A stretch of 64,000 nucleotides of DNA from a virus. Its lineage: Duplodnaviria; Heunggongvirae; Uroviricota; Caudoviricetes. Position 1 is the stretch's first letter. The number at the start of each line of letters is the position of its first letter. Location of the stretch: positions 1 through 64,000 of IMG/VR virus record IMGVR_UViG_3300006151_000006; one strand, given 5' to 3'. This document shows, in pieces, positions 3,886 to 20,056 of the stretch. The position numbers and the translations under genes are program-made. A model generated the notes under the pieces. It had not been told where the DNA came from. It was given only the letters and a program-made list of their open reading frames with translations, and did not search any database.

Positions 3886-4284
3886 TTAATCTCGCTTCAC
3901 GTCGGGGTCACGCACAATATTGATGACTGTTGGCATTGGGTTCTCAAGATTGACATTAACAGATTCGCCGAAGCCTTCTTCTCGGCCGAGCGTCGATAGC
4001 ATATACCGCAACATCTGGCCGTCTGGTTTCTCTTTCCAACCGATAATGTGGCCGGTAGCAGGATCGATATGGGGTATGCCAAGGGCTATAATACGGGCAG
4101 CATCGAGGCACTGGTCGAATAGCTTCATTCGCGAATCCTTTACAGCAGCCTTGAACATTTCGTCTTCGCGAATCCAGTTATGAATGGTCTGACGCGTCAC
4201 GCCAAGAATGCCGGCGGTCTGTGTCAGATTGCCGCCGGTCTTTCTTATCGCGTCTTCAAACTCGTCAAAATTTGGTTTTCGCAT
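3886..4284 (-). CDS. HTH protein, possible terminase small subunit (Terminase_5-like N-terminus)
   Basis: N-terminus TQTAGILGVTRQTIHNWI resembles the gpP-like small-terminase HTH. The position, separated from terL by a helicase, is unusual. Confidence 0.4.
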   Translation of the reverse strand: MRKPNFDEFEDAIRKTGGNLTQTAGILGVTRQTIHNWIREDEMFKAAVKDSRMKLFDQCLDAARIIALGIPHIDPATGHIIGWKEKPDGQMLRYMLSTLGREEGFGESVNVNLENPMPTVINIVRDPDVKRD

Positions 4285-4767: not shown

Positions 4768-4879
4768 TTGAGTCGTTGATTAAATATCTTATTTGCAATA
4801 ACAAAGATACTGAATTTTAATCAATTATGCAAATTTTGGCAAGGTTAAGCCATCATCAAATTTGCAAATTTTCAGCACC

Positions 4880-6259
4880 TTAATCGTTCAACCCAAACAG
4901 CGGAAGGATATCGCCCTGACGGTTGTATGACTGATTGTTCGGGAGGTTGAGATTGAACTCGTAGTTGATGGCGTTGATGTACTCTTCGCGTGTCAACTCA
5001 CGGACTTTGTAAGCCCCCCAGCCCCAATAGCCGGATTTGTTATACTGCATGAAAGACTCAAAGCCGAAACGCTCGAACATAGCCTGAACCTGCTCCTTTG
5101 TGAGGAACTTCTGGAAGAACCATTGGCCCTCCTGCATGAAGGCGGTAAGACCGTTCTCATCGAAGAACTGAACGGTTGTCGTGCAATCCACAGTGTTGCG
5201 CTTAGCTCCGTACTGCTTCATTGCAACTTCCTTCGAGCGACCGGACACGAATACCTTGCCACCCATCTTTGTGAATAGATTGAGACAGGTCAGTACGGCA
5301 TCTTCAGCATACTGCGTGTTCACAGAGTTCAGCACTGCGTCGCAGATGGTGTAATCGAACACACCACCATTGATTATGCCATTCTCTTTGATGTAGGAAA
5401 TGAACGCATCAATCATTTCGTGGCCTTTGGCAATTGATATGCCCTTCAGGTTGTGATTGAAGAATTCAAGACCGATGGCGTAGCGGTAGCCGAGTTCGCG
5501 GCGGAGTTTGTTGATGAACATTGCCTTGCCGCAACCGAAGTCCAAGATCTTCACTTTACGCTTGTCTTCTTTTTCCAGGTGGGGCACAACCTCACGATAA
5601 AGAACTGACCAGTCTATACCCTTGTGACGCGGGGGCTGGGCTCGCCCCTGCATAAAGTCGGCTCGCTCGATATGCTCATAGTTGAACACTCCGTAGTCTT
5701 TCTTGAAGTAGTAGTCGAAGATACCACGCTTGCCTCCCTCGAGGAAGTAGCAATGAATGGGATAGCCGAGAGTTGCTGCAGCTTTGATGTAGTTGTTTCC
5801 GAAGACCACCTCATCGCCACATACGATAGCGCAGAGAGCATCGCCGAATTTAACGATAAGACGGCAGATGTCTTTCACAATAGAAGCGTTGGCTTCGACA
5901 ATCTCAAAGTCTGAGGCGGGAATGTCATCGTGAAAAGTCCCGGCTTCACGAGAAGCTTTGCACTTGCTCAACTTTTCGGGTTCAAGTTCCACGCCATTGT
6001 GGACTTGGTTGAAGAGGATTTCAGATTCGATGTCAACACCGCTTATGAAGTAAACCGGTGCTTCCGTGAGTCCTACAGCCGTTGCGGCCTTGGTACGTTG
6101 GTGCCCGGCAACGATTGTCATGTTGTCGCGGTTGACGATAATCGGAAGAATGAAGCCGAGTGTCTTTAAGCTACCCTGCAACTCCACAAATGCCTCGTCA
6201 GTAATCTTACGGGGATTGTAAGATGCTGGTCGGATGTCTGCGAATTTTACGTAATCCAT
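4880..6259 (-). CDS. ParB-like nuclease-domain protein fused to a class-I SAM-dependent methyltransferase
   Basis: N-terminus DIRPASYNPRKI...IVAGHQRTKAA fits ParB/Srx. C-terminus has motif I ILDFGCGKAMF, post-I YAIGLEF and motif II YTICDAVL. Confidence 0.65.
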   Translation of the reverse strand: MDYVKFADIRPASYNPRKITDEAFVELQGSLKTLGFILPIIVNRDNMTIVAGHQRTKAATAVGLTEAPVYFISGVDIESEILFNQVHNGVELEPEKLSKCKASREAGTFHDDIPASDFEIVEANASIVKDICRLIVKFGDALCAIVCGDEVVFGNNYIKAAATLGYPIHCYFLEGGKRGIFDYYFKKDYGVFNYEHIERADFMQGRAQPPRHKGIDWSVLYREVVPHLEKEDKRKVKILDFGCGKAMFINKLRRELGYRYAIGLEFFNHNLKGISIAKGHEMIDAFISYIKENGIINGGVFDYTICDAVLNSVNTQYAEDAVLTCLNLFTKMGGKVFVSGRSKEVAMKQYGAKRNTVDCTTTVQFFDENGLTAFMQEGQWFFQKFLTKEQVQAMFERFGFESFMQYNKSGYWGWGAYKVRELTREEYINAINYEFNLNLPNNQSYNRQGDILPLFGLND

Positions 6260-6294
6260 GATTGTTGTGATATTTAGTCGTTTTGGGGAAATAT

Positions 6295-7017
6295 TTATTC
6301 AGGCATTTCAAATACCGTGTCAGAATCCTCTCCACTGTCCTGATCGATAGGCGCGGAATCCTCCAGTAGGCTCTTAACGAAACCGAAGTTGACACCGGTC
6401 TGGTCCACGTAGTCATTGTAGCGACTCACAAGGGCTTCGTATTCCTCCTTGGTTACAGACACGACATACTTGCCGAATGTCAGCATGTTAATTTTCTTCG
6501 GAGTAGAACCCTTAATCTTGGTCATTACAGTGTCATCATCGTCAGGATTATAGAACAGACCTTCATCGAAGCCGAAATTTACGAGGTTGATTTCATCGTA
6601 CATTTGCTGGAGCTTGGTGTAGTCGAACTCGCCAAACTCATTGTTATCTTTGATAATCAGTTCCTTTTCCTCTTCTTCGGATAGGTCGGCCACCGTGACA
6701 TGAACAATTGGATTTTCGAGCCATTCTTTCCAGTAATCGATTACTGCGTCACGCTGTTTCTCGGTCATGCCGAGCCACTTTTCGTTCTCCTGAAGGATTA
6801 CCATCCAATCCATCGGGGTAGTTGTCAGGATTTCCTTGAGAATTGTGGTGCGCTGGTTGCCGGCAAGCACTACATTGTCTTTGTTGACAATAATGTCGCG
6901 GTAATAGAGCATCTTCGGGAAGAGCATTATGCTCTGCTGAAGACGACGCTTTTGCCCCACGACAATCTTACGAGGATTGATGGGGTTTATGATAAGTTCT
7001 TTGATGTCCTTTTTCAT
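6295..7017 (-). CDS. ParB-like nuclease-domain protein
   Basis: INPINPRKI ... VLAGNQRTTIL. Confidence 0.6.
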   Translation of the reverse strand: MKKDIKELIINPINPRKIVVGQKRRLQQSIMLFPKMLYYRDIIVNKDNVVLAGNQRTTILKEILTTTPMDWMVILQENEKWLGMTEKQRDAVIDYWKEWLENPIVHVTVADLSEEEEKELIIKDNNEFGEFDYTKLQQMYDEINLVNFGFDEGLFYNPDDDDTVMTKIKGSTPKKINMLTFGKYVVSVTKEEYEALVSRYNDYVDQTGVNFGFVKSLLEDSAPIDQDSGEDSDTVFEMPE

Positions 7018-7685
7018 TTGCCGAGAAGTAATTCAGTTAAAAATCCATCACTTATGCCGTCGTGCTCCTGAAGATATTCATCAAGACGTGCAGAAAGGCC
7101 TTTAAATTCTTGGTCTGTCATCTGACATTCCACATAACCGCATTTGAATTTTTCAGGATATGTCTTGGATAGGTCAAGATTCTTGTCGTTGATTTTGTCG
7201 TCGTAGTCGTAGAGGTTCCACGCCACATAGCCGAGGTAGTCGCCGATGGCCTCACGCTCGAAATGGCGCTTCATTATTTCGATGTCATCTTCGCCGTAGT
7301 GGAGATTGTCTTTTATAAGAATCTCTTTCTCTTCCTCGGCAGAAACATTATCGAGTATGCGAACGAACACTGTGGGCTTTTTCTTCCATTTGGCCCAGAA
7401 AGCGAGAAGCGCAGTTTTCTCCTCGTCAGAGGCCATACGGAATTTCTTCTGGTTGAACAGATAATCCTCAATCTCATTGTCATCGAGTTCAAGAATTTTG
7501 TTCAGGCACTGTACGCGACCGTTACCGCCAACAATTACATCGTCTTGGTTTACGAGAATGGGGCGCAATTCGAGCATCTTCGGAAATACGAGCAGACTCT
7601 CGATCAGCTTTCCCTCCATAAACTCGCTCATGGTACGAGGATTGTCAGGATTGGGTTTAAGTTTTCGTATGTCTTTTTTATCCAT
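7014..7685 (-). CDS. ParB-like nuclease-domain protein
   Basis: LKPNPDNPRTMS ... VIVGGNGRVQCL; a paralogue of the previous gene. Confidence 0.6.
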   Translation of the reverse strand: MDKKDIRKLKPNPDNPRTMSEFMEGKLIESLLVFPKMLELRPILVNQDDVIVGGNGRVQCLNKILELDDNEIEDYLFNQKKFRMASDEEKTALLAFWAKWKKKPTVFVRILDNVSAEEEKEILIKDNLHYGEDDIEIMKRHFEREAIGDYLGYVAWNLYDYDDKINDKNLDLSKTYPEKFKCGYVECQMTDQEFKGLSARLDEYLQEHDGISDGFLTELLLGK

Positions 7686-7974
7686 TGTGATATTGATAGT
7701 TTTCTAAGCGCAAAGATAATCAAAATGCGTAGATTAGCCAAGTATTTATAGATAAAATAATCAATATGATTAGTTGATAAGGTTAGGGATTGCGCTTTTG
7801 GTGATTTTTCACACTTAAAATGATGATTATTTGGGCTTTTTTCGTTATCTTTGCACTATGGATATTTAGTTTAGAGTCCCTTGCCCTTTTTACTGGGGCA
7901 ACTGGGGTTTTTGATTAAATATCTTATTTGCATTTAAGTGAGTTAACCCGTGAGGGCCCGCTCACTTTCTTTGT

Positions 7975-8352
7975 TTATGGCTCCGGCAGTTTAATGATGT
8001 GAAGCCATATCCACGGAAGCCAAATCCGTTTGAGTTTTATCCACCACGAGCACTTGACACTTTTGGCAAAGAAGAACGTGCGTGAATACTTGCCTCTTGG
8101 CACACATGGATTGAACCAGTGTTTGTAACCCATAGCCTCCATCAATGGGATTGATTCTGGCGCCACGACTATTGATGGAATTGTCTTGTTGTGGCCGCAG
8201 CAACTACCGGTAGTTTTCACGCCATTACTAAGTAGCTCGATAACTTCTTCGACGATGCAAGTATCTACCCATATCTTTCTTCCGAGTGTTTCGTGGTATA
8301 TCTCAATCTGATTGTCGAAAGAACCGAGCTCTACATTCTTACAATTACACAT
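7975..8352 (-). CDS. Cys-rich hypothetical protein (possible metal-binding partner of the radical SAM enzyme)
   Basis: Carries CNC, GSCCGH and C..C motifs and sits immediately downstream of the radical SAM gene. Confidence 0.45.
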   Translation of the reverse strand: MCNCKNVELGSFDNQIEIYHETLGRKIWVDTCIVEEVIELLSNGVKTTGSCCGHNKTIPSIVVAPESIPLMEAMGYKHWFNPCVPRGKYSRTFFFAKSVKCSWWIKLKRIWLPWIWLHIIKLPEP

Positions 8353-8382
8353 GATGTTTTTTTCGTTTATTATGGGGGTGTA

Positions 8383-9453
8383 TTAAATTCCTCTGGTTGA
8401 ATAACTGAGCTGGCTACCACTACATTCGTAAGGCAAGAGAATATCTTCATCTTCGAGCCAAGATCCGCATAGGTTTCCATTTGGATGGAAGACCATTTCA
8501 AAAACCGTATCTGGTGTTTTTTCTTTTTGTGGGTCTATGGCGGAAAGATCTGCGCTCTCCATTACGACATCGATATTCTTATACTTGTAAACCTCGCAAT
8601 AATAGTAATATCCCAACACTTGAGTTATAGGCCGGAAAATATGCGGCATGAGATCAATCTCGCTCCAGATGTCATCCAACTTAATCTTTTGTTCTTCAAG
8701 AAAACGTAACTTCGGAATGTTATGCATTACTGACTTATCGTAATCCATTGTTTCCCGGAATATTATATTATCTACCCCCATTTCTCCATAGAAATCCAAA
8801 TAACGCATCATTGCCTCAATGCTACTGATTCCACTTTTCAGAAGAAGGCAACTTAGGCGTGGCCTAACATTTCCAGACAAGGCTACTTTTACAACTTCGT
8901 GCATCTGCTCATTGCAGAAGTAGCTGTTACTGAATTTCATAATATCCGCATTCACATTCTCAAGATAATGCGTTTTGGAAATATTCAGATGATGAAACCC
9001 ATTTTCAATAATATGGTCTATTATGCGTTTCCCATCAACAATATCGAGTAATCCACTTCCATTAGTTGTGATTACTCGCTTTCGGAAGTTGTATTTGGAA
9101 ACAAGTTTTAAGATACGCAGTAGTCGATGGGATTTAGTTGGCTCCCCACCAGTGATAGATATTGACGGATTAAGGGGGCGTATGGTTTCCAATACCTCAG
9201 CCAACCGGGTAAAATATTCTTCATCATCAGAGATTCTTTCTTTGATGAAAGTCTTGCCTTTGCCCTCAAATCGCAACTGATCTATACAGAACCGACAGTC
9301 TGCATTACACGATTCGTTTACAAATATTGATAGGTTCGCATTCTCATAGACTGACTTCTGCTTACCATTAAAGGCAAATGGTTTTGTAATATAGTTCTCA
9401 GCATCAAATTCCTTACGTCGTATAGAGCGGAGAACGGAGAATTTAGATTTCAT
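8383..9453 (-). CDS. radical SAM enzyme
   Basis: CNADCRFC (CxxxCxxC) plus a GGEP motif; 356 aa. Not QueE-like in length and not an obvious SPASM domain. Confidence 0.8.
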   Translation of the reverse strand: MKSKFSVLRSIRRKEFDAENYITKPFAFNGKQKSVYENANLSIFVNESCNADCRFCIDQLRFEGKGKTFIKERISDDEEYFTRLAEVLETIRPLNPSISITGGEPTKSHRLLRILKLVSKYNFRKRVITTNGSGLLDIVDGKRIIDHIIENGFHHLNISKTHYLENVNADIMKFSNSYFCNEQMHEVVKVALSGNVRPRLSCLLLKSGISSIEAMMRYLDFYGEMGVDNIIFRETMDYDKSVMHNIPKLRFLEEQKIKLDDIWSEIDLMPHIFRPITQVLGYYYYCEVYKYKNIDVVMESADLSAIDPQKEKTPDTVFEMVFHPNGNLCGSWLEDEDILLPYECSGSQLSYSTRGI

Positions 9454-9648
9454 GTTTGGTATGCTATTAAAAGCCGATGACCCGCCGTTTCGCTTTTCGC
9501 GGCCGTCGAAACCCCATGTGCATCTCGTGCTGAACCGCCGGGGTAGTGGTAACTTATGCGATAGGCTCTGGTTCCTGTCTATGCGATGTGGCGGAATCTC
9601 CAGGTCAAGTGCGAACGTACCATTTGCTGCGGGGTGTGTCGGCTTATG
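9454..9648 (-). promoter_or_regulatory. GC-rich structured leader upstream of the radical SAM gene (candidate cis-regulatory RNA or promoter)
   Basis: A 195 nt intergenic stretch that is markedly more GC-rich than its surroundings, with several short complementary segments. Confidence 0.3.
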
Positions 9649-10041
9649 TTATTGAATTTCTTCGCAATACTCCCATAAAGAGAGTTTGCCTTTTACATTT
9701 TCGATTGGTTTGTCAAACTTAATGGGATTGGCAAGAACCCAGTTCCAAACACCTTTCTCGGCCCATTCTGATGGGTGGTTTTGAACACAATCGACAATCT
9801 CTACACTACCTATAATCGCGGAAGTGGGATATAAGGCCCTATTACTGGAATTATAGAGAAGCGCAGTACGTGCTACTGGAAGAGGGTAGCAATCCCGTAT
9901 CTCAGCATAAGGCACTGGAGTTTTCGCTGCGTGAATTAACACTCTTCCCCGGTACGACGTTCTCCATGTGCGGTTCTCAATATCCTTGCCGCCCGCGACA
10001 ATTAAACCGGCCCAAGGTTGCTTTACTGTCAACGCTTTCAT
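9649..10041 (-). CDS. ASCH-domain protein
   Basis: LTVKQPWAGLIVAGGKDIENRTW matches the ASCH / PUA-like signature. Confidence 0.65.
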   Translation of the reverse strand: MKALTVKQPWAGLIVAGGKDIENRTWRTSYRGRVLIHAAKTPVPYAEIRDCYPLPVARTALLYNSSNRALYPTSAIIGSVEIVDCVQNHPSEWAEKGVWNWVLANPIKFDKPIENVKGKLSLWEYCEEIQ

Positions 10042-13095: not shown

Positions 13096-13722
13096 TCACT
13101 GCGCAACATAGTCTATGTGGTCGCCGGCGGCGAGGATATGACGCTTTGCTTCCTCCGGGAGCGACTGCATATTCGGTATTTTTTCAGACGTGATGTGGGC
13201 CGGCACTTGCTTGAACACCATGAGTCCTTTGTTATTCCAACCATTGCGCCGGATTACAAAATCTTCACGGAGCATGGGTAGAATTTGCTCGAATGAGAGG
13301 CCGGAGGGATGACACGCCTCATTTCCCTCCATACATGACTGTCTAAGAGCCGCAAGGTTGAGGTATGCGCACATAGTATTGAACTGTGCGATAAGGAAAG
13401 CGCGTGTACCGAGTGGCAGAGCCTTAAAGTCTTCGCCATCGTTTTTATTGAAGATAAAGTACCCGAGTTTATCTGCCCTTTGTTTAAGATCGGCAATTTC
13501 AATGTTGAGCCGATCGAGAGGGGTTTCAGATACCTTGTAAGCGTCCTCAAACACTTCAGCTGGCGTCCACGACTCGTAGCCATCAGGGTAAACTACATAA
13601 TAGCCTTTATTGTCGTTGTATTCCTCAACATAGGCGTTTTCGCGGATAAGGCCACGCTCATGTGCCTCTCCGTAGGTCATTGGCTCTGCTTTGACCGTCT
13701 TTGTTCCAATATATGTTTTCAT
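13096..13722 (-). CDS. DUF2829 (Tad2-like) domain protein, candidate anti-Thoeris sponge
   Basis: C-terminus FEQILPMLREDFVIRRNGWNNKGLMVF fits the DUF2829 pattern FGEAL..LK.GKKVaRkGWngkGm. The N-terminus MTYGEA may be a second copy. Confidence 0.45.
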   Translation of the reverse strand: MKTYIGTKTVKAEPMTYGEAHERGLIRENAYVEEYNDNKGYYVVYPDGYESWTPAEVFEDAYKVSETPLDRLNIEIADLKQRADKLGYFIFNKNDGEDFKALPLGTRAFLIAQFNTMCAYLNLAALRQSCMEGNEACHPSGLSFEQILPMLREDFVIRRNGWNNKGLMVFKQVPAHITSEKIPNMQSLPEEAKRHILAAGDHIDYVAQ

Positions 13723-14552
13723 TTGCTCCAGTTTTTGCTACATTTTACATTGTCTGGAAGATCTGTGAGATTCCAGTCGGCGTAGGAATCGGAGAATTCC
13801 ACTTCATCGAAGTGCTCTGCAAGAGTGATGATGCCCTTGGGGTTCACCATGTGGGTAACATACACCTTGAGGAAGGCATCTGGGGCGATTTCACGAAGTT
13901 TCTCAGCAATACCAGCGAATGTGCCGCCACCATCGCAAAGATCATCGACCACGCAGATAGAGCCACCTTTGTAAACTTCTGGGTTGAGGATTTTGAATCC
14001 AGAGAGTTGGCCGGTCTCAGGATCACGCTCCTTACTGCAAAGGATTATCTTGTCAGAAGGACGCTCAGGGGAATGACTGAACTGATGAGCATAACGCTCA
14101 ATAGCTCCAGCATCTGGGAAGCAGTAGTAGTCAGCGGTAGCTACAAAGGCGACATTTGCATATTGACAATCACAGTTGTTGATAAGTGAGACTGCTTTTT
14201 TGGAATGAGCTTCCACCAGTGTAACTCGAATTGGCTTGATGCTGTTAATGGCATCGGCTACCAGCTTCAAACTGAACGCCTCATTGAATGCGACGACGCG
14301 ATCCATTCGCATACCCATCAGATATGTGATGTAGAGCGAAAAGGTGACTCCATGTCGGTTTAGAATGTCACCAAGCTGCATGAGAATGAACAAATCATCC
14401 GCATTTGCAATGCGTGTAATGATGAGTGTATGCTTTTTGTGGTCGATTTCACTGTCGATAACGATATGTTTTTCGCTATCAGGAAATTCGACAATGTGAT
14501 ATTTGATTGAGCCCTTATCAGGATTGATAAGATTTATTTCTTGTACTCGCAT
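13719..14552 (-). CDS. ribose-phosphate pyrophosphokinase-family protein (candidate Adps, NARP1)
   Basis: PRPP-binding loop VVDDLCDGGGT; 277 aa, shorter than canonical Prs; immediately upstream of the NAMPT homologue. Confidence 0.8.
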   Translation of the reverse strand: MRVQEINLINPDKGSIKYHIVEFPDSEKHIVIDSEIDHKKHTLIITRIANADDLFILMQLGDILNRHGVTFSLYITYLMGMRMDRVVAFNEAFSLKLVADAINSIKPIRVTLVEAHSKKAVSLINNCDCQYANVAFVATADYYCFPDAGAIERYAHQFSHSPERPSDKIILCSKERDPETGQLSGFKILNPEVYKGGSICVVDDLCDGGGTFAGIAEKLREIAPDAFLKVYVTHMVNPKGIITLAEHFDEVEFSDSYADWNLTDLPDNVKCSKNWSK

Positions 14553-14553
14553 A

Positions 14554-16068
14554 TTATCGAATTGTATTGTTTACGTTATCTCGGATTTCAGATAGACTCC
14601 AGTCTTTAAGCAGCTTGCCATCTTCAAAGACTGTTTGTAGTTCACCGGTTGCTTCAACTTCGGCTGATACTTGGTCGATGGCATAGAAATTACCCATCTG
14701 GTCCTTCTTGATACAAATTAACCCTTTGAGGGACTTCTTAACGCCATTGTCTGTTTTGGGGTCCTTGAATATTTCACGTCCTTCACCATTGACTTGACAC
14801 CAAGTGGCTTTCATTGCAAAGCCTAAAGAATCGCGAGATTTAAACTGATAAGTAAATGAGCCAACGCCAAGCACAAGATTGGTTGCAGCAAAACCTTTGG
14901 CTTCTAATCTGCGATAAATCTCCTTCTGACGTTCAAGAGTGATGGAGTCGCCATAAATCAATCCAATCTTAGGATTAAGCACCTTATAGCCAGCAGTATT
15001 AACTGTTCCTCCGAAAATTTCCCAAAGGATTTCATATGCACCTTTGATGACAGCTTCGTTTTCTGCAATTTCTTGGAAAGTCATTTCCTTGACATCTTCA
15101 GGGTCTAAGCCACATATAATGTCAACCGGATCTCCACTGTCAGGACGAATTACTACACGTCCATCACGAGCTTCGATGATGTCTTTTAACTGAGGGAGAT
15201 ATTCTGTCATCACTTTCCAGAAATCCCAAGTATCGCTGACAATCGAGACAAAGCCGCTGGGATATACTTCGGTGATGAGTCTGCGGAATGTTTCCAGCTC
15301 ATCTTCTTTTCCACCGGCACACATAACTGAATGCTCGGTAGCTGGCACTGTTCCGGCAATCAGTTCCTTTGAAGCATCAGCGTTATAATACTTCTCAATT
15401 GCAGCAATCGCTGGAATTGTTTCACTACCGGTAAAAGAAGTCATGTGACCCATTCCCGACATCACAGCAGCTTCGACACCGGCCATGCCTCTCATTGAAA
15501 AATCGTGGCACAAGAAATCCAGACCGGGCATAGTAACAAAACCAGTCTTGATTGCGTGACGGACCAACTCTTGCTTGTATAAACGAGCTGAGGTTGCAGA
15601 TGTCATCGGGAGCCACAAAGTTGTTGAGATGAGGGTTTCAAAGTAGTTGGTGAGCCAGAAAAATTCGTCCTTAGTGTTGACAATTGTGAGAGCCGGAACA
15701 CGAATTGGGCAAAGAGAACCTTCTGGAAGTGCTTTGATTCGTAGCGGAAGATAACCTAAGTCATGGAGAGCTGCTACATGCTCAGAACCTACTTGATTGT
15801 CTGGACCCAAGAATGTATTGATGCGTCGAGTCCATAAATCAATTACTTGGTCTTTAGGTTTTGCGAAGAATTCCTCATTTATTTGTTTAATGAGGTACTC
15901 CTTGATAAAATACTGAATGCCAAATACCACAGCACCATCTTTAGCCTCCGGATAATGGGTGTGGCTGCGTGGTGTCCAGTTGGCATACACTCTTTCAGTC
16001 CCTTTTGGGTACTGTCTTCGATGGTCTAACTTGTAGCCATCGGTAAGCAAAATTGCTTCTTGCGACAT
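14554..16068 (-). CDS. nicotinamide phosphoribosyltransferase-family protein (candidate Namat/NadV)
   Basis: N-terminus ILLTDGYKLDHRRQYPKGT is the NAMPT signature; 504 aa. Confidence 0.85.
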   Translation of the reverse strand: MSQEAILLTDGYKLDHRRQYPKGTERVYANWTPRSHTHYPEAKDGAVVFGIQYFIKEYLIKQINEEFFAKPKDQVIDLWTRRINTFLGPDNQVGSEHVAALHDLGYLPLRIKALPEGSLCPIRVPALTIVNTKDEFFWLTNYFETLISTTLWLPMTSATSARLYKQELVRHAIKTGFVTMPGLDFLCHDFSMRGMAGVEAAVMSGMGHMTSFTGSETIPAIAAIEKYYNADASKELIAGTVPATEHSVMCAGGKEDELETFRRLITEVYPSGFVSIVSDTWDFWKVMTEYLPQLKDIIEARDGRVVIRPDSGDPVDIICGLDPEDVKEMTFQEIAENEAVIKGAYEILWEIFGGTVNTAGYKVLNPKIGLIYGDSITLERQKEIYRRLEAKGFAATNLVLGVGSFTYQFKSRDSLGFAMKATWCQVNGEGREIFKDPKTDNGVKKSLKGLICIKKDQMGNFYAIDQVSAEVEATGELQTVFEDGKLLKDWSLSEIRDNVNNTIR

Positions 16069-16472: not shown

Positions 16473-16487
16473 GCTGTTTATAATTTG

Positions 16488-16561
16488 TCGTCCTGTCCAG
16501 ACTCGAACTGGAACCTTCAGAGCCAAAATCTGACGTGCTGACCAATTGACACCACAGGACA
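16488..16561 (-). tRNA. tRNA-Gln(UUG)
   Basis: U1-G72 acceptor pair, anticodon loop TTTTGGC, T-loop TTCGAGT. Confidence 0.7.
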
Positions 16562-16565
16562 AGAT

Positions 16566-16772
16566 TTATCGGTTAAAGACTTTAACAAACCCTCCGATTA
16601 TGACACAAATGAATAGGACTGCCAATACGATGGCGAAAGGCCCCCAAAGTGGAGCAAGCACCCACCACCACGACCAAGTAATGATATTACACAGTTTCAG
16701 TGTAATGAAAATCAATCCAAGGATCGCTAAAAATGGGAAACTGGTTGAAGTGGTTTTCTGAATATTTGCCAT
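16566..16772 (-). CDS. small membrane protein (2 TM helices)
   Basis: MANIQKT... is very hydrophobic. The longer listed ORF overlaps tRNAs and is rejected. Confidence 0.4.
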   Translation of the reverse strand: MANIQKTTSTSFPFLAILGLIFITLKLCNIITWSWWWVLAPLWGPFAIVLAVLFICVIIGGFVKVFNR

Positions 16773-16794
16773 AGTTTTTATATTAATGGTTTTG

Positions 16795-16881
16795 CGGAAG
16801 CGATGAGACTCGAACTCATAAGCCGGTTTCCCGACAGGCACGTTAGCAGTGTGCTGGTTTGACCAATTCACCCACACTTCC
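16795..16881 (-). tRNA. tRNA-Ser(GCU)
   Basis: Type II with a long variable arm, 3 bp D stem, anticodon loop CTGCTAA, discriminator G. Confidence 0.75.
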
Positions 16882-16887
16882 AATTTG

Positions 16888-16961
16888 CAGCGCATACCGG
16901 ACTCGAACCGGCGATCTCCTCCGTGACAGGGAGGCGTCCACTCCAACTGAACTGATGCGCT
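16888..16961 (-). tRNA. tRNA-Asp(GUC)
   Basis: Anticodon loop CTGTCAC, stem CCTCC/GGAGG. Confidence 0.8.
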
Positions 16962-16969
16962 ATATATTG

Positions 16970-17042
16970 TATGGGTGACAGGGCTCGAACCTGCGACATC
17001 TACATCCCAAATGTAGCACTCTACCAACTGAGCTACACCCAT
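16970..17042 (-). tRNA. tRNA-Pro(UGG)
   Basis: Anticodon loop TTTGGGA. Confidence 0.75.
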
Positions 17043-17048
17043 ATATTG

Positions 17049-17122
17049 CAAGTCGTGAAGGATTTGAACCTCCGAAATTTGGTTTTGGAGACCAACGCAA
17101 TAGACCACTCTGCCAACGACTT
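17049..17122 (-). tRNA. tRNA-Trp(CCA)
   Basis: Anticodon loop CTCCAAA. Confidence 0.75.
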
Positions 17123-17129
17123 GTGTTAG

Positions 17130-17201
17130 AGGGCATGGTGGGGGTCGAACCCACGACCTGACGGTTAACAGCCGCCTGCTCTACCACTGAGCTACAAACC
17201 C
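17130..17201 (-). tRNA. tRNA-Asn(GUU)
   Basis: Anticodon loop CTGTTAA; one U-U mismatch in the acceptor stem. Confidence 0.7.
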
Positions 17202-17207
17202 ATTATA

Positions 17208-17280
17208 GACACTCTTGTCAGAATCGAACTGACGTGTACGGTTTTGCAGACCGCCGCCTCGCCACTCGGCCAAAGAGTGT
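17208..17280 (-). tRNA. tRNA-Cys(GCA)
   Basis: Anticodon loop CTGCAAA. Confidence 0.7.
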
Positions 17281-17282
17281 TG

Positions 17283-17356
17283 TGGACCCGACAAGAATCG
17301 AACTTGTGCCCTTCGACTTATGAGGTCGCTGCTCTAACCAACTGAGCTACAGATCC
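17283..17356 (-). tRNA. tRNA-Met(CAU) (elongator or Ile2-type)
   Basis: Anticodon loop CTCATAA; lacks the initiator features. Confidence 0.7.
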
Positions 17357-17361
17357 ATTTG

Positions 17362-17436
17362 GGTGATAGATGGAAGTTGAACCCATGACCTCCTGATTCA
17401 CAGACAGGTGCTCTAACCACCTAAGCTACTAACACC
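17362..17436 (-). tRNA. tRNA-His(GUG)
   Basis: Anticodon loop CTGTGAA; the extra 5' G(-1) pairs with C73. Confidence 0.8.
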
Positions 17437-17437
17437 G

Positions 17438-17509
17438 TGGATTGAGATGGATTTGAACCACCGACGCTTGGCTCTTCAGGCCAACGCTCTACCACTGAGC
17501 TATCAATCC
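17438..17509 (-). tRNA. tRNA-Phe(GAA)
   Basis: Anticodon loop CTGAAGA. Confidence 0.8.
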
Positions 17510-17515
17510 TTAATG

Positions 17516-17587
17516 TACCCCCACCGGGAATCGAACCCGGATTTCAAGAATGAAAATCTTGCGTCCTAACCTTTAGACGACAGGGAC
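17516..17587 (-). tRNA. tRNA-Glu(UUC)
   Basis: Anticodon loop TTTTCAT; the acceptor stem carries four G-U pairs. Confidence 0.6.
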
Positions 17588-17589
17588 AT

Positions 17590-17674
17590 TGGTGGAAGCA
17601 GAAGGACTCGAACCTACGAACTCCGAAGAGGGCAGTTTTACAGACTGCTGCCGTTGCCGCTTGGCTATACTTCC
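17590..17674 (-). tRNA. tRNA-Tyr(GUA)
   Basis: Type II, anticodon loop CTGTAAA, CCA encoded. Confidence 0.75.
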
Positions 17675-17679
17675 ATTTG

Positions 17680-17753
17680 TCGGAAAAGATGGACTCGAAC
17701 CAACGACCTTCTGCGTATCAGGCAGATGCTCTAACCAACTGAGCTATTTTCCG
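17680..17753 (-). tRNA. tRNA-Ile(GAU)
   Basis: Anticodon loop CTGATAC. Confidence 0.8.
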
Positions 17754-17814
17754 ATAAACTCAGCGATTCTCACGAACCACTGAGAAAGATTGAATTATGT
17801 GCAATTTAAACCAT

Positions 17815-17890
17815 GTCAGACAATCGGGACTCGAACCCGAAACCGTTCCACCTTTTCGGTAGCTGCTCTGTCCAATTGAGCTATTGTCTG
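17815..17890 (-). tRNA. tRNA-like element with non-canonical anticodon arm (pseudo-tRNA?)
   Basis: Acceptor, D and T arms are perfect, but the anticodon region CTACCGAAAAGGTGG gives only a 5 nt loop, or a loop lacking U33. Confidence 0.4.
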
Positions 17891-17998
17891 TGCGCCCGCT
17901 ACGCAACTGAAGCGTTTCCCAACGACTCAGTACCTCCGACGCGTCTAAAACAATCTTTTCAACCTTAAAACAAAACCACAATAAACTAAAACCCTAAG

Positions 17999-18071
17999 AG
18001 CCACTTGCAAGACTCGAACTTGCGACCCCGATATTACAAGTATCGTGCTCTACCAACTGAGCTAAAGAGGC
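17999..18071 (-). tRNA. tRNA-Thr(UGU)
   Basis: Anticodon loop CTTGTAA. Confidence 0.75.
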
Positions 18072-18275
18072 ATACGGAATAAGTTGTTTACGCTTACCCC
18101 CAACTCCGATGACGGCCTTGCTCGGAGAAACACCGCCAGCTAACGTTCTGGCTCCGCGACTTACCAACCTCACCAGTTGTCTCTGGTATTGAGGTGCCGG
18201 AGGCTTTTCGATCCCTCGATCATTTCAGCAGTTAGAACTCGTCAAGTTGCTGAAAGGTGCGCACAAAGGCTGCGG

Positions 18276-18355
18276 TGGTTCGGGTAGGACTTGAACCTAC
18301 GTCATTCCGGTAGTTAACCGGTTGCTCTTACATGTACCTACTGAGCTACCAAACC
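18276..18355 (-). tRNA. tRNA-like element with a 15 nt D loop and a palindromic anticodon arm
   Basis: Acceptor and T arm are canonical. D region is GCTC-15nt-GAGC. Anticodon arm is CCGG TTAACTA CCGG with T at position 37. Confidence 0.4.
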
Positions 18356-18361
18356 TTGTAG

Positions 18362-18435
18362 TGGAGCCATCGGGAGTCGAACCCGAAACCTTCTGAATGC
18401 AAATCAGACGCTCTACCAATTAGAGCTATGACCCC
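18362..18435 (-). tRNA. tRNA-Ala(UGC)
   Basis: Anticodon loop TTTGCAT, G3-U70 identity pair, discriminator A. Confidence 0.8.
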
Positions 18436-18478
18436 AAATCCGCAAAGACACAAAGGGGATTGCGCCTTTGCGGTGTGT

Positions 18479-18805
18479 TTACATTTTCCACATACCGAAA
18501 TGTTCTCTCCAGTCAAGATAGTTGTTTGCACTTTCATAGAAGTACGCTTCTTTCTCAAAAGAGATATTTCGGTAAGCATTGCCGGGAAGAAAGAGTCTGG
18601 CAAGCCATTCCAACACATAAATAATGTAGAAGAAAATGTAGCCAAGTTCTTTCATCTGAGCAGTGTGGATCTTTTCGTGATTCCATAACCGTTCAGAGAT
18701 TTTGACATCATTGCGTACAAATAAAACTCCGAAGAGATTGATAGCAGCAAATCCGGGGAACGGTATGAATGAATTGCGGATTATTTTCATCGTCTGACAT
18801 TCCAC
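18479..18805 (-). CDS. HExxH-motif putative metallohydrolase/peptidase (membrane-associated)
   Basis: Hydrophobic N-terminus followed by RLWNHEKIHTAQMKELGY. Confidence 0.5.
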   Translation of the reverse strand: MECQTMKIIRNSFIPFPGFAAINLFGVLFVRNDVKISERLWNHEKIHTAQMKELGYIFFYIIYVLEWLARLFLPGNAYRNISFEKEAYFYESANNYLDWREHFGMWKM

Positions 18806-19611
18806 ATAGTGCTGGATGTGCCGCCATCAAAAAGTACGTCAATATTTGCACCCTGTTTGGCCGCAATCACATCCCATGCTTTCAGGCTGATAAACTGTTC
18901 CGCAGTAAGACCCATTTCTCGCTGGTATGCCTTGTCAGACACAGCACGTTGTCGTTCAGCCTGCTCTCGTGCAACCTCAGTTTCGTAACGCCGCTCCTGA
19001 GTCTGTTTGGCCTGAATCTGTGCCGCAGTGTTATTCATTTCCTTTAGCTGTGCGTCATTAGGGATTGCGCGTCCTGTAATGACATTTTCAACAACGACAG
19101 GAAACTCCTTCTGGGTGGACAACCGGGCAATATGTCGAATCATATCGGCTTTAACACATGAGTCGATGTGTGCGACAACCTCTCGGTTGCTGGTAAGGTC
19201 AAACGGGGAATACTGAGAAACATAGTGTCGAGTGAGGTTGTTGTAAACTTCCTTGATATTGTTCTCATACCAGTTGACACCATAATTCTTCAGAAGAACG
19301 GGACTCTTGCCTTTCTCGATTCGGAGAATAATCTGAGTCTTGAAATCCAGAGGGGGGTTTTCATTAGAAATGATGTCATCCAGCGTTTCCTCGTAACGGA
19401 CAGGAGTTACTTTGAAGGTTTCGCTTGAAGTGCTCCAGAAGCACCAAGTAAGACCGGTCTCAGCGGGTTCCATGTCCACGCCACCATGTCCGAAAAACCA
19501 CGGCTTAGTGATCAACACTGCTTCTTCATCAGCGTCAGGGCACACGCCGTGACAGCTGGAAACGGCAACGCACATAATTAGTGCGAGAAATAGTTTAATG
19601 AAATGTTTCAT
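18787..19611 (-). CDS. SPFH/band-7 family lipoprotein
   Basis: Lipobox AVSSC, a PHB-like core, and a coiled-coil C-terminus (EAERQRAV...). Confidence 0.55.
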   Translation of the reverse strand: MKHFIKLFLALIMCVAVSSCHGVCPDADEEAVLITKPWFFGHGGVDMEPAETGLTWCFWSTSSETFKVTPVRYEETLDDIISNENPPLDFKTQIILRIEKGKSPVLLKNYGVNWYENNIKEVYNNLTRHYVSQYSPFDLTSNREVVAHIDSCVKADMIRHIARLSTQKEFPVVVENVITGRAIPNDAQLKEMNNTAAQIQAKQTQERRYETEVAREQAERQRAVSDKAYQREMGLTAEQFISLKAWDVIAAKQGANIDVLFDGGTSSTMWNVRR

Positions 19612-19647
19612 AATTGTTTGGTTTGTTAAAATGTCAATGTTCTCTTT

Positions 19648-19728
19648 TGTGGGCTAACCGAGACTCGAACTCGGACACCGATGGTACAGCATTTTGAGTG
19701 CTGCGTGTCTACCAATTCCACCATTAGC
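19648..19728 (-). tRNA. tRNA-Leu(CAA)
   Basis: Type II, anticodon loop CTCAAAA, discriminator A. Confidence 0.75.
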
Positions 19729-19733
19729 CCTTA

Positions 19734-19817
19734 TGTGCTCCGACTGGGAGTCGAACCCAGACGGTCACTATGACCAAGGGATTTTAAGTCCCTCGCGTCT
19801 ACCATTCCGCCACCGGA
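19734..19817 (-). tRNA. tRNA-Leu(UAA)
   Basis: Type II, anticodon loop CTTAAAA. Confidence 0.75.
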
Positions 19818-19827
19818 GCTTAGAAGT

Positions 19828-20040
19828 TTATTTAAGCCACCGAATTAACATGGACAGCAGCCAACCGTGACGTACTTTAGTCTGTTTCAACTCCTTCTTT
19901 TGGAGCTTTAGCATCGCTATCTCAGCCTTATGTGCAGCAATTTTGTTGTCAATATCGGCATTAAGCAATGCGATTTCAGATTGATTGTCTTGCAGTGATC
20001 TAATCACTGAATCACGACGGTTGTTGAATACTGTGTCCAT
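19828..20040 (-). CDS. small coiled-coil protein
   Basis: Internal start MDTVF; the longer ORF overlaps tRNAs. Confidence 0.35.
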   Translation of the reverse strand: MDTVFNNRRDSVIRSLQDNQSEIALLNADIDNKIAAHKAEIAMLKLQKKELKQTKVRHGWLLSMLIRWLK

Positions 20041-20056
20041 ATCTTTTAGAATTTGT

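Follow-up and report, generated by a model that had tools for sequence, protein, structure and literature searches.

Do the six adjacent genes between positions 4880 and 10041 of this 64,000-nucleotide stretch of viral DNA (the window) encode a single pathway of nucleic acid hypermodification or modification-dependent anti-restriction, as a preliminary description of the locus proposed, or do they belong to separate units? All six open reading frames (ORFs) are present on the minus strand (Table 1), and transcription therefore runs from ASCH through the radical SAM enzyme (rSAM), the Cys-rich protein, ParB3 and ParB2 to ParB-MT. The ParB gene described as the first of three is thus the last to be transcribed, and its partners, described as directly downstream, are indeed present but lie transcriptionally upstream of the ParB genes. 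The assignments of ParB, methyltransferase, radical SAM and ASCH domains are borne out by Pfam and PHROG matches, and the quoted motifs NPRKI, GHQR, GNQR, ILDFGCGKA, YAIGLEF, ICDAVL, CNADCRFC and GGEP are found, although the GxQR motif ascribed to all three ParB proteins reads GNGR in ParB3. All six genes are under purifying selection, with dN/dS values of 0.02–0.10 against relatives of 93–99% identity. We consider it rather probable that the region is mosaic, comprising three or more independent units, and is not a single DNA hypermodification pathway; the functions given below for the cluster genes are those that we infer.

Table 1. Features of the window considered in this analysis
Feature	Coordinates	Strand	Basis or position
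Large terminase subunit TerL, 453 aa	309..1670	-	46% identity to annotated TerL of Bacteroides phage BS-TP3
SNF2-family helicase, 557 aa	2206..3879	-	Partial NCBIfam/PADLOC SNF2 matches; synteny with ParB trio and terminase
HTH_8 protein, 132 aa, candidate small terminase subunit	3886..4284	-	Pfam HTH_8 E 2.8e-6
Hypothetical protein, 159 aa	4288..4767	-	Adjoins ParB-MT in L003–L023 at 57–97% identity
22-nt exact repeat, copy 2	4776..4797	.	Between ParB-MT and next gene
ParB-MT, 459 aa, phrog_5475	4880..6259	-	
ParB2, short ParB-fold protein, 240 aa	6295..7017	-	phrog_498/620 E 2e-13 and 6e-13
ParB3, short ParB-fold protein, 223 aa	7014..7685	-	phrog_620/498 E 1e-11 to 1e-12; family alignment A3
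22-nt exact repeat, copy 1 (TTGATTAAATATCTTATTTGCA)	7911..7932	.	Upstream of ParB3
Small protein with 7 Cys, 125 aa, phrog_12958	7975..8352	-	phrog_12958 E 2.5e-8
Radical SAM enzyme, 356 aa, "RA" family, one CxxxCxxC cluster	8383..9453	-	Pfam Radical_SAM
Leader between ASCH and rSAM gene	9454..9648	-	L012–window alignment
ASCH-domain protein, 130 aa, phrog_3193	9649..10041	-	Pfam ASCH E 1.9e-8; phrog_3193 E 1.7e-44
Prs-like (277 aa) and Nampt-family (504 aa) NAD-salvage pair	13719..16068	-	4–6 kb from rSAM

Conservation of the ParB Genes with the Packaging Genes

To assess synteny, 21 proteins of the window were compared by tblastn with 23 related loci. The order ParB3, ParB2, ParB-MT, 159-residue protein, HTH_8 protein, SNF2 protein, HTH, HTH and TerL is colinear down to 47–63% identity (L014–L020, L022 and L023), and in these loci neither an rSAM nor a Cys-rich gene is found within 2.5–6.5 kb upstream of the trio. 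ASCH, rSAM and the Cys-rich gene are confined to close relatives; the ASCH gene was not found by tblastn in L014–L018 and lies 4.6 kb from ParB3 in L020. The full six-gene arrangement is intact in the closest relatives (L003–L010 and L024–L027), and in L012, where ParB-MT is 90% identical, the ASCH and Cys-rich genes are retained and exactly the rSAM ORF is missing, such that the conserved leader that ends at the rSAM ATG in the window ends at the ATG of the Cys-rich gene in L012. Some relatives carry two copies of ParB-MT, and the window carries two short ParB proteins.

On the other side of the trio, the 159-residue protein (no Pfam or PHROG match) and the HTH_8 protein (weak PHROG small-terminase matches, E 1e-4) are syntenic in all relatives, and TerL copies of 65–98% identity come after the ParB block. 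The matches of the SNF2 protein to ZorD, DrmD and DpdE-like families (NCBIfam, PADLOC) all fall far under the cut-offs.

The same pattern of short ParB protein(s) and a ParB-methyltransferase beside the terminase recurs across phages. Bacteroides, Yersinia/E. coli and Brochothrix phages have full-length homologues of ParB-MT (27–32% identity). In Bacteroides phage BS-TP3, TerS and TerL come after a short ParB and ParB-MT; the set shared by Yersinia phage vB_YpM_39 and E. coli phage 613R2 comprises a 207-aa ParB, ParB-MT, the product of a 239-aa gene, a ParB paralogue of 196 aa with 48% identity to the 207-aa protein, a TerS-like protein and TerL; and in Gordonia phage Evaa the ParB-like gp1 and the ParB-methyltransferase gp2 lie near the terminase. 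The survey in which the ParB/Methyltransf_23 class is catalogued (PNAS 2025, PMC12704722) has no mention of terminases, and so the obligatory short-ParB partner(s) and the terminase-adjacent position come from the present analysis.

The ParB Folds and the Methyltransferase Domain

ParB-MT comprises a ParB N-domain (residues 1–90; Pfam ParB_N 34.1 bits, cut-off 26.3) that matches Spo0J, ParB and Noc, an alpha/beta middle region (~100–186), a class I SAM methyltransferase (~220–420; Pfam Methyltransf_23 28.0 bits, cut-off 27) and C-terminal helices. ParB2 and ParB3, for which Pfam ParB_N gives no match, show 31% full-length identity to each other (E 1e-27 to 1e-31), and the resemblance of each to ParB-MT is limited to the first ~60 residues (E 1e-3 to 1e-4); in a profile comparison, hhalign matches the short-ParB family to the ParB-MT family N-terminus with a probability of 97% (E 4.7e-11). 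Full-length homologues of ParB2 are BS-TP3 gp51 and the 207-aa and 196-aa proteins of vB_YpM_39, all of which share the C-terminal motif ...G..GFV..LL. Within the short-ParB family, N14, R16, G53, R56, D124 and N125 are invariant in the alignment. We read R16, R56 and N125 of ParB2 and ParB3 as the putative phosphate-contacting positions of a ParB NTP pocket, and would equate positions at which they carry Asn with the hydrolysis residues, a mapping obtained by aligning motifs with Spo0J, for which the E-value is weak (0.12). Pfam and NCBIfam reveal no DNA-binding domain, HTH or other, in the three ParB proteins.

The SAM-binding motifs are invariant across the ParB-MT family (alignment A2). 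In structural comparison, the methyltransferase domain lies nearest in fold to methyltransferases of small molecules, the cap N7 position and tRNA; the best 50–60 matches include no DNA methyltransferase, and the (D/N/S)PP(Y/F/W) motif is absent from this domain. A DNA substrate would therefore follow from the ParB context only, and we regard DNA as a possible rather than a probable target of ParB-MT. A role in nucleic acid modification is plausible by analogy for the ParB/methyltransferase part of the cluster, because 5mYOX is activated on double-stranded DNA by a phage ParB that has a nucleotide-binding and a C-terminal domain and lacks a DNA-binding one (PMC13229309), and because ParB–Methyltransf_23 fusions are enriched in phages and prophages (PMC12704722); bacterial ParB–SAM-methyltransferase fusions bind ATP (PMC12704722). 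This much of the preliminary description stands, while its extension to one six-gene module is not supported.

The Radical SAM Enzyme and Its NAD-Gene Context

The rSAM (Pfam Radical_SAM 31.5 bits, cut-off 29.5) belongs to an uncharacterised MoaA/viperin-like family that we term RA. The AF2 model (pLDDT 81.7) has MoaA (1tv7) as its best PDB match, with a TMq of 0.57, and viperin at about 0.5. The window enzyme retains all family-invariant residues of RA (alignment A1, mean column identity 68%) and has a dN/dS of 0.08–0.09. All 86 loci outside the window lineage have a second, shorter rSAM, RB, beside RA and no more than 3.5 kb from it, and one protein (P0382) appears to be an RB–RA fusion. Neither RB nor a second CxxxCxxC motif is found anywhere in the 64-kb window, making the window lineage the sole RA lineage without an RB partner among the 97 RA-containing loci, and so the function of the RB–RA pair may not apply to the window rSAM. 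Clustering of these 97 loci limits ParB, ASCH and Cys-rich neighbours to the 11 entries of the window lineage; in the 86 others, none of the three ever adjoins RA.

RA and RB genes lie inside NAD operons (NadD, PncB, NadE, NadK, PncC and NrtR, confirmed by NCBIfam above or near the cut-offs) in metagenome-assembled genomes of several bacterial phyla. At least two NAD genes are found within 8 kb in 18 loci, assigned to Bacilli, Dojkabacteria, Erysipelotrichaceae, Ruminococcus, Elusimicrobia and a Paludibacteraceae-binned contig; in L036, the genes are co-directional and almost abut. The window itself encodes a Nampt-family protein (NCBIfam PRK09198 562.9 bits; Pfam NAPRTase and NAMPT_N) paired with a protein that has weak Prs matches only (NCBIfam), and this type of pair also stands beside RB–RA in L028, L057, L059 and L118. 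Most phage loci have the RB–RA pair with no NAD gene within 8 kb, and RB–RA phages share no contig with the best 80 of >576 Nampt-encoding IMG/VR contigs. The NAD link of the rSAM, which is one of guilt by association, is put forward tentatively.

The ASCH and Cys-Rich Proteins

The ASCH domain scores 35.4 bits in Pfam (cut-off 21.2), and stand-alone homologues occur in varied contexts in 129 unrelated phage records. As ASCH–ParB and PUA-like–ParB fusions are catalogued in other lineages (PMC12704722), ASCH and the ParB unit may by analogy be functionally linked. The "Cys-rich" protein has 7 Cys in 125 residues, with homologues among hypothetical genes of Caulobacter jumbo phages and rV5-like coliphages where no rSAM is annotated nearby. 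We considered it as a specific partner of the rSAM and rejected this, given these homologues and its retention in the rSAM-less L012.

Comparison with Known Systems

MoaA (GTP 3',8-cyclase) and viperin/pVip, which act on nucleoside triphosphates, have a partial TIM-barrel core with one CxxxCxxC cluster, as does the window rSAM (structural matches to MoaA at E 2e-10 and to viperins at E 1e-7 to 1e-8, TM-scores about 0.5–0.57). The window enzyme, however, is without the second, C-terminal cluster of MoaA, and the RA family has invariant C-terminal motifs of its own, such as HPNG..SW; the NCBIfam scores of the window enzyme are 35–39 bits against cut-offs of 180–325, and PADLOC pVip matches span the N-terminal core only.

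The Dpd system (DpdA, ParB-like DpdB and QueC/D/E) likewise brings together a ParB-like protein, an rSAM and an SNF2 helicase. Here, however, the rSAM has no QueE match (NCBIfam), the SNF2 protein scores 41 bits against a DpdE cut-off of 500, and DpdA/TGT, QueC and QueD are absent from the scanned window ORFs, as are 5mYOX/TET-JBP, kinase and amino-acid:DNA transferase genes. The preliminary description was therefore right to set the locus apart from both Dpd/7-deazaguanine and 5hmdU-type hypermodification.

Fusions of ParB-N to N6_N4 DNA methyltransferases (phrog_498; Evaa gp1–gp2) resemble the window in the N-terminal ParB domain, the separate short ParB and the proximity to the terminase, whereas ParB-MT is not of the N6_N4 type. 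The thymine dioxygenase system 5mYOX176/ParB176 (PNAS 2026, PMC13229309) has a short NTP-binding ParB with a C-terminal domain and no recognisable DNA-binding domain, encoded beside the enzyme, whereas in the window the methyltransferase itself bears a ParB domain. ParB-CTPase-fold/Methyltransf_23 (PF13489) fusions (PMC12704722; phrog_5475) are phage- or prophage-encoded and share both Pfam domains and their order with ParB-MT. With regard to NAD+ reconstitution (NARP1, Adps and Namat; NARP2; NARP3, PMC13464706), the Prs-like/Nampt pair is of a kind that many phages carry, and the RA family is tied by guilt by association to NAD genes in bacteria and some phage-like contigs; our literature search found no mention of a radical SAM enzyme in the NARP papers.

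Proposed Organization and Alternative Explanations

Taking these observations together, we propose that positions 4880–7685 constitute a short ParB plus ParB-methyltransferase module, co-inherited with the TerS-like, SNF2 and TerL genes. Its ParB folds, possibly as hetero-oligomers, would form an NTP-gated DNA-loading or activating device, by analogy with the ParB activators of phage thymine dioxygenases, that brings a non-canonical methyltransferase to phage DNA or a DNA-bound target around packaging, with RNA/tRNA or a small molecule as alternative targets. Positions 8383–9453 would be a self-contained RA-family cassette. As the RA family stands beside RB and in bacterial NAD biosynthesis/salvage operons, its rSAM may act on a pyridine or other nucleotide metabolite and not on DNA, as part of an NAD-centred takeover or counter-defence set with the Prs-like/Nampt pair and a Tad2-like protein encoded near the rSAM region. 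The ASCH and Cys-rich proteins would be independent accessory genes.

The adjacency, shared orientation and purifying selection of the six genes, their intact arrangement in the closest relatives, the ParB–ASCH and ParB–PUA-like fusions, and the established partnership of ParB-like proteins with DNA-modifying enzymes in phages would all suit a single hypermodification or anti-restriction pathway. In that scheme, DNA would be targeted by the ParB proteins and modified by the methyltransferase and the rSAM, the latter helped by the Cys-rich protein, and the resulting base would be recognised by ASCH. We nevertheless consider this very unlikely: in relatives at 47–79% identity, colinearity is lost precisely at the junction of the Cys-rich gene and ParB3; a 289-bp intergenic gap that contains a hairpin and the conserved 22-mer lies between these two groups; in L012 the rSAM alone is missing; the RA orthologues and Cys-rich homologues keep other company elsewhere; and the methyltransferase resembles small-molecule and RNA enzymes in fold, and not DNA amino- or C5-methyltransferases. 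HNH proteins help the terminase in some cos phages, and the trio could similarly be a packaging accessory, with ParB/Srx-fold nucleases or site-recognition factors acting at pac/cos and methylation being secondary. The position directly upstream of TerS/TerL in four unrelated phage groups and the PHROG label "ParB-like nuclease" are consistent with this, but the strict conservation of the methyltransferase domain, the failure to identify a nuclease motif and the Brochothrix phage BtpYZU02 homologue, located at the end of the replication module and ~4 kb away from TerS, make it distinctly improbable.

ParB-MT might instead methylate RNA (e.g., phage tRNAs) or a small nucleotide metabolite. Its ParB fold, like those of sulfiredoxin and SerK, would then bind ATP/CTP in a regulatory or kinase-like capacity and have no role on DNA. 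The best structural neighbours (Trm9, CmoM, METTL6, and cap guanine-N7 and small-molecule methyltransferases) and the 20–21 phage tRNA genes 6.5 kb away point in this direction, as do the binding of ATP or GTP besides CTP by ParB folds and their fusion to predicted RNA-related domains in other lineages (PMC12704722), and we view it as a minor but real possibility. The ParB N-domain and the 22-nt exact repeat on both flanks of the trio (only two copies in 64 kb, where none is expected by chance; 0–2 mismatches in the upstream copy of close relatives) could also suggest ParB/parS partition. Such systems serve plasmid-prophages such as P1 and N15; here, however, this reading is barely credible. 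No ParA-type KGGxGK[ST] motif occurs in any ORF of at least 100 aa in the 64 kb, the TIGR00180 match reaches 29 bits where the cut-off is 58, and neither an HTH nor a canonical ParB dimerisation domain was detected. In addition, the 22-mer lacks palindromic symmetry, an integrase-like gene is present in the window, and relatives are embedded in long bacterial contigs. The phage is probably a temperate one of roughly 80–90 kb that infects Muribaculaceae.

Gene Organization and Modularity of the Region

Six co-oriented open reading frames occupy positions 4880–10041, as the preliminary description had it, with the strand and gene order now corrected to the minus strand and to transcription from the ASCH gene toward ParB-MT, the 459-aa fusion of a ParB N-domain and a SAM methyltransferase (see the table). 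The quoted motifs were all found, except that ParB3, one of two short ParB-fold paralogues (ParB2 and ParB3), reads GNGR where the GxQR form had been described. Pfam matches above gathering scores comprise ParB_N and Methyltransf_23 in ParB-MT, Radical_SAM in the 356-aa protein and ASCH in the 130-aa protein, and dN/dS is 0.02–0.10 in all six genes, as calculated against 93–99% identical relatives because dS is saturated in distant comparisons.

Features of the region under study and of the rest of the window
Feature	Position	Strand	Description
ASCH	10041-9649	minus	130 aa; 1st in transcription order
Radical SAM	9453-8383	minus	356 aa; 2nd in transcription order
Cys-rich gene	8352-7975	minus	125 aa, 7 Cys; 3rd in transcription order
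ParB3	7685-7014	minus	PHROG ParB families; 4th in transcription order
ParB2	7017-6295	minus	PHROG ParB families; 5th in transcription order
ParB-MT	6259-4880	minus	ParB_N + Methyltransf_23; last in transcription order
Tad2-like protein	13096-13722	minus	208 aa; crAss001_48-related and Tad2-like (Thoeris anti-defence) domains at Pfam threshold
Prs-like and Nampt-family genes, adjacent	13719-16068	minus	277 aa and 504 aa
tRNA array	16487-20270	minus	20 (ARAGORN) to 21 (Rfam) genes, including tRNA-Phe(aaa) and two tRNA-Met
IS-type transposase	26241-27386	minus	
Reverse transcriptase	31614-32870	minus	possibly from a diversity-generating retroelement
Integrase-like ORF	50625-51212	minus	
NAD-dependent DNA ligase	51349-53295	minus	

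The proposal that these six genes form one module does not hold in a synteny survey in which 21 window proteins were searched against 23 related loci. In every relative, ParB3, ParB2 and ParB-MT (the trio) are colinear with a hypothetical 159-aa gene, an HTH_8 gene (TerS-like), SNF2, two HTH genes and TerL, and this trio-to-TerL colinearity persists to 47–63% protein identity (L014–L020, L022, L023), while the radical SAM and Cys-rich genes are confined, among these loci, to the closest lineage of the window. The ASCH gene is 4.6 kb away in L020, and was undetected in L014–L018 in the same 21-protein search. In L012, a relative with a 90% identical ParB-MT, the ASCH gene is followed by the Cys-rich gene and the radical SAM gene is missing; alignment of the junction places the leader that precedes the radical SAM ATG in the window before the Cys-rich gene in L012, and thus the radical SAM reading frame behaves as a discrete cassette. 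A six-gene hypermodification pathway is a tempting but wrong reading of the region, which instead yields two testable units.

The Cys-rich gene and ParB3 are separated by a 289-bp gap that contains a hairpin and a 22-nt sequence. This sequence (TTGATTAAATATCTTATTTGCA) is an exact direct repeat at 4776–4797 and 7911–7932 that brackets the trio, with no further copy in 64 kb; the copy upstream of ParB3 is conserved in relatives, and the other lies just after ParB-MT. A promoter or leader element, a regulatory site and a recombination scar are all possible interpretations of the repeat. Inspection by eye also located, 26 nt upstream of the start of ParB3, a TAnnTTTG box of the Bacteroidota type (TATCTTTG). 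Scans for sigma-70 promoters and for terminators yielded nothing informative, which is to be expected when the host belongs to Bacteroidota.

We note that three relatives (L003:11327–14075, L004 and L009) carry two ParB-MT copies each, as tandem genes 62% and 90% identical to that of the window, giving four ParB-fold genes in a row. Separately, the SNF2 gene of L007 (13572–16220), L008, L011 and L013 has an interruption of ~1 kb between residues 127 and 128, absent from the window, which suggests that an intein, intron or homing endonuclease has inserted there.

The ParB Proteins and the ParB-Methyltransferase Fusion

The N-domain of ParB-MT scores 34.1 bits against Pfam PF02195 (ParB_N, cut-off 26.3) and matches the N-domains of Spo0J, ParB and Noc in the PDB; TIGR00180 reaches 29.1 bits (cut-off 58.45), in this domain only, and no HTH was detected in the three ParB proteins. 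ParB2 and ParB3, which are 31% identical over their full length, fall below the Pfam ParB_N model, have no NCBIfam match, and match PHROG ParB families with E-values of 1e-11 to 1e-13; the profile of the short-ParB family aligns to the ParB-MT N-terminus with an hhalign probability of 97% (E 4.7e-11). ParB-MT, a single polypeptide with ParB_N ahead of a class I SAM methyltransferase, belongs to the phrog_5475 fusion class (E 2.3e-64 over residues 7–447 of 459). Its full-length homologues, at 27–32% identity, are found in Bacteroides phage BS-TP3, in Yersinia and E. coli phages and in a Brochothrix phage; for BS-TP3 gp52 and for the protein of the Yersinia phage, identity is 31–32%.

The surroundings of these homologues resemble those of the window. 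BS-TP3 has a short ParB (gp51), ParB-MT (gp52), TerS and TerL in this order. In Yersinia phage vB_YpM_39 and E. coli phage 613R2, a 207-aa ParB is followed by ParB-MT, a 239-aa gene, a second short ParB of 196 aa, a TerS-like gene, TerL and the portal gene; the composition, two short ParBs (here 48% identical paralogues) and one ParB-MT, is the same as in the window. In Gordonia phage Evaa, the neighbors of the terminase include gp1 (“ParB-like nuclease domain protein”) and gp2 (“ParB-N-terminal-like domain methyltransferase”). The short ParBs of these phages can be aligned with ParB2 and ParB3 over their whole length, sharing the C-terminal motif ...F.G..K.P.T..E......Y.D..G...GFV..LL, and N14, R16, G53, R56, D124 and N125 are invariant in the family alignment.

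We took Box I (xPR), Box II (the GxxR arginine) and Box III (..N) as pocket motifs, of which NPR and GHQR were seen in ParB-MT, and mapped the CTP residues through a weak motif alignment to Spo0J (E 0.12). On this alignment, with residue roles from PMC13229309, phosphate binding in the short ParBs would fall to R16, R56 and N125, and Asn would stand at the positions equated with the hydrolysis residues Gln and Glu.

A partition system (ParABS) is rejected, since a scan by motif only for the deviant Walker A sequence of ParA (KGGxGK[ST]) gave no match in ORFs of at least 100 aa in the 64-kb window, and the proteins do not have the canonical ParB architecture. Nor does ParB-MT resemble a DNA amino- or C5-methyltransferase, as judged by motif IV, (D/N/S)PP(Y/F/W) or PC/ENV, and by closest fold. 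In a published survey, ParB–Methyltransf_23 is listed among the phage-enriched ParB fusions and is enriched in prophages; anti-defence roles were suggested there for these fusions, without tests, and ATP binding was shown for bacterial ParB–SAM-methyltransferase fusions (PMC12704722). In addition, a biochemical study found that a thymine dioxygenase is activated on dsDNA by a short phage ParB with no DNA-binding domain (PMC13229309).

Taking the pocket mapping of the short ParBs together with these two papers, we prefer a mechanism in which an NTP-gated ParB assembly would load or activate a non-canonical methyltransferase on phage DNA near packaging time; the domain composition, conservation and synteny of the unit are observed directly, and we infer its substrate, hetero-oligomer formation and timing. 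In live alternatives, ParB-MT would act on RNA or tRNA, or on a small molecule, or the trio would be a packaging accessory. ParB-MT is a member of a catalogued, functionally uncharacterized fusion class, to which we add the dedicated short-ParB partners and the linkage to packaging genes across phyla. Among ParB architectures specific to phages, the ParB-methyltransferase fusion ranks with the commonest; that such fusions head the packaging module in very different phages, together with dedicated short-ParB partners, provides a concrete three-protein set to co-express and assay.

Family and Fold of the Radical SAM Enzyme

The 356-aa protein belongs to the radical SAM superfamily (PF04055, 31.5 bits, cut-off 29.5), and C49, C53 and C56 (CxxxCxxC) as well as GGEP are invariant in its family, which we call RA. 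The family has its own invariant C-terminal motifs, one CxxxCxxC cluster and no auxiliary cluster; C202 is the only conserved Cys outside CxxxCxxC, so that there is no second cluster motif. More than 900 relatives were found at E ≤ 1e-3 in a 90% clustered collection, none informatively named, and 128 family representatives at E ≤ 1e-30 in a 50% clustered library; mean column identity is 68% across the sampled members, and the family is abundant in gut phages.

Several known enzymes were considered and rejected. MoaA reaches 36–39 bits against cut-offs of 284–325, and its second C-terminal [4Fe-4S] cluster motif is absent; viperin/pVip reaches 35 bits against the NF038283 cut-off of 180, over residues 43–137 only, with PADLOC pVip matches likewise limited to the N-terminal core; and NrdG, like MoaA and viperin, lies far below the NCBIfam cut-offs. 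The view that the cluster does not match the Dpd/7-deazaguanine pathway is borne out: there is no QueE among 14 NCBIfam matches, which also rejects a QueE/Dpd enzyme, the similarity to DpdE is 41 bits against a cut-off of 500, and DpdA, QueC and QueD were not seen in the part of the window's ORFs that was scanned. The cluster is thus neither Dpd, viperin nor a partition system, and no member of the 5hmdU set (5mYOX/dUMP hydroxymethylase, 5-hmdU DNA kinase, amino-acid:DNA transferase) was seen by Pfam, PHROGs or NCBIfam among the ~50 larger ORFs scanned in the window.

A PDB search with the family profile matched the N-terminal core only and gave no close relative, and there is no solved structure or curated model for the RA family. 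The AF2 model (pLDDT 81.7) finds its best match in MoaA, followed by SuiB and viperins, with TM of about 0.5–0.57, that is, only generic similarity to MoaA, viperin and RiPP maturases.

Association of the Radical SAM Family with NAD Genes

Neighborhoods of RA were fetched with the family alignment at 47 genome loci and 62 viral loci, and the neighbors were clustered. A second, shorter radical SAM protein of ~225 aa (RB) adjoins RA in all 86 loci outside the window lineage, in the order RB-RA in phages and mostly RB-RA'-RA in bacteria, RA' being a paralogue with 31% identity; one of the library proteins resembles an RB-RA fusion. The window lineage is the sole one with RA and without RB: RB is absent from the whole window (tblastn at E ≤ 1e-3, with no second CxxxCxxC) and from 11 of 11 loci of this lineage. 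The RA of the window, at 50–56% identity to RA of other lineages, nevertheless has all the invariant residues and evolves under purifying selection.

In 18 loci, RA has two or more NAD genes within 8 kb, and NCBIfam confirms NadD, PncC, NadK, NrtR, NadE and PncB, as well as a Nampt-family protein, near RA. This association was found again in MAGs classified as Bacilli, Dojkabacteria, Erysipelotrichaceae, Ruminococcus and Elusimicrobia. In a Bacilli MAG (L036), Prs, NadD, RB, RA', RA, a P-loop kinase, another radical SAM gene, PncC and NadK follow one another in this order and abut or overlap; the Dojkabacteria locus (L038) is flanked by pyruvate kinase- and cytidylate kinase-like genes (by eye) and is thus bacterial, not viral; and a phage-like 375-kb sequence binned as Paludibacteraceae (L028:2779–11925) has, in order, a Prs-like gene, Nampt, RB, RA, a macro-domain-like gene and NadE. 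Most RB-RA cassettes of phages lack an NAD gene within 8 kb, and RB-RA phages share no contig with the best 80 of more than 576 Nampt loci.

As a further observation, the RB-RA'-RA set stands within NAD operons (Prs, NadD, PncB, PncA, NadE, PncC, NadK, NrtR) of MAGs that represent several bacterial phyla, at about position 8000 in each of L032–L039, L046, L049 and L057–L060 (e.g., L036:4570–11911), and is often followed by a P-loop kinase. Neither this kinase-like gene nor RB gave an informative PDB match, and Pfam found no informative extra domain in the RA fusions P0375 (1836 aa) and RC (~650 aa). In lemur-gut phage Dulem virus 40 (L001:8216–10369), genes for a small GNAT acetyltransferase and an IS4 transposase come after RB-RA; the label “molybdenum cofactor biosynthesis enzyme” on its RA record is unsupported by scores.

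The placement of the RA family in NAD operons of several phyla suggests an unrecognized step of NAD metabolism. With moderate confidence, judging from sequence and gene context, we take the window enzyme to be an accessory cassette that probably acts on a nucleotide or pyridine metabolite, and not on DNA. It is an orphan member of an uncharacterized family whose NAD-operon context is undescribed as far as the searchable literature shows: literature on radical SAM–NAD links and on phage radical SAM enzymes gave no description of this family, no paper was found on the RB-RA'-RA set in NAD operons, and papers on NARP1–3 and on jumbo-phage NAD genes do not mention radical SAM enzymes. Our broadest proposal, which is tentative and may well prove incorrect, is that the window gene belongs to an undescribed system of two or three radical SAM paralogues (RB, RA', RA), which operates in NAD biosynthesis or salvage operons of reduced-genome anaerobes (Bacilli, Dojkabacteria, Elusimicrobia) and was captured by gut phages as a compact cassette, and that, separately, two short ParBs and a ParB-methyltransferase form a conserved packaging-linked epigenetic device in phages of Bacteroidota, Enterobacteria and Actinobacteria. 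The RB/RA'/RA system could, for example, make the pyridine moiety or a pyridine nucleoside by a pathway that needs no oxygen. If so, the captured cassette would be a further NAD-restoring or -manipulating counter-defence of phages beside NARP1–3, and an NAD step, if confirmed, would matter for anaerobe physiology and for the conflict between phages and bacteria over NAD.

The ASCH and Cys-Rich Genes

The ASCH protein (PF04266, 35.4 bits, cut-off 21.2) belongs to phrog_3193, a family of stand-alone phage proteins that is common and has varied gene neighborhoods. ParB-ASCH and ParB-PUA-like fusions are known in other lineages, and for this reason the ASCH gene may be tied to the ParB unit, a link to which the synteny gives no support here. 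The Cys-rich protein (phrog_12958) had been described as a partner of the radical SAM enzyme, a role that we reject: the gene is kept in L012 without the enzyme, and its homologues in Caulobacter jumbo phages and rV5-like coliphages lie among hypothetical genes with no annotated radical SAM gene near them.

The Phage, Its Probable Host, and a Possible Accessory Region

A near-identity DNA search of phage records returned no near-identical phage. Among genome records, the nearest is a contig of a Muribaculaceae isolate, with 94% identity at the radical SAM gene, and relatives of ParB2 lie on long contigs of Muribaculaceae, Barnesiella and Bacteroidaceae; isolates with related sequences include IMSAGC_006 and Barnesiella sp. 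WM24. Genes for portal, protease and capsid proteins are also present in the window, and Rfam found only tRNAs. Related IMG/VR contigs have lengths of 80 and 89 kb. We read the window as part of a probable temperate phage of about 80–90 kb infecting Muribaculaceae.

The adjacent Prs-like and Nampt-family genes resemble NARP1 (Adps and Namat) or Prs and Nampt NAD salvage; the Prs-like protein is divergent from bona fide Prs, and this type of pair is widespread in phages. Both this pair and the Tad2-like protein lie 4–6 kb from the radical SAM gene, and the Tad2-like protein suggests that the 8–16 kb stretch is an accessory or counter-defence region.
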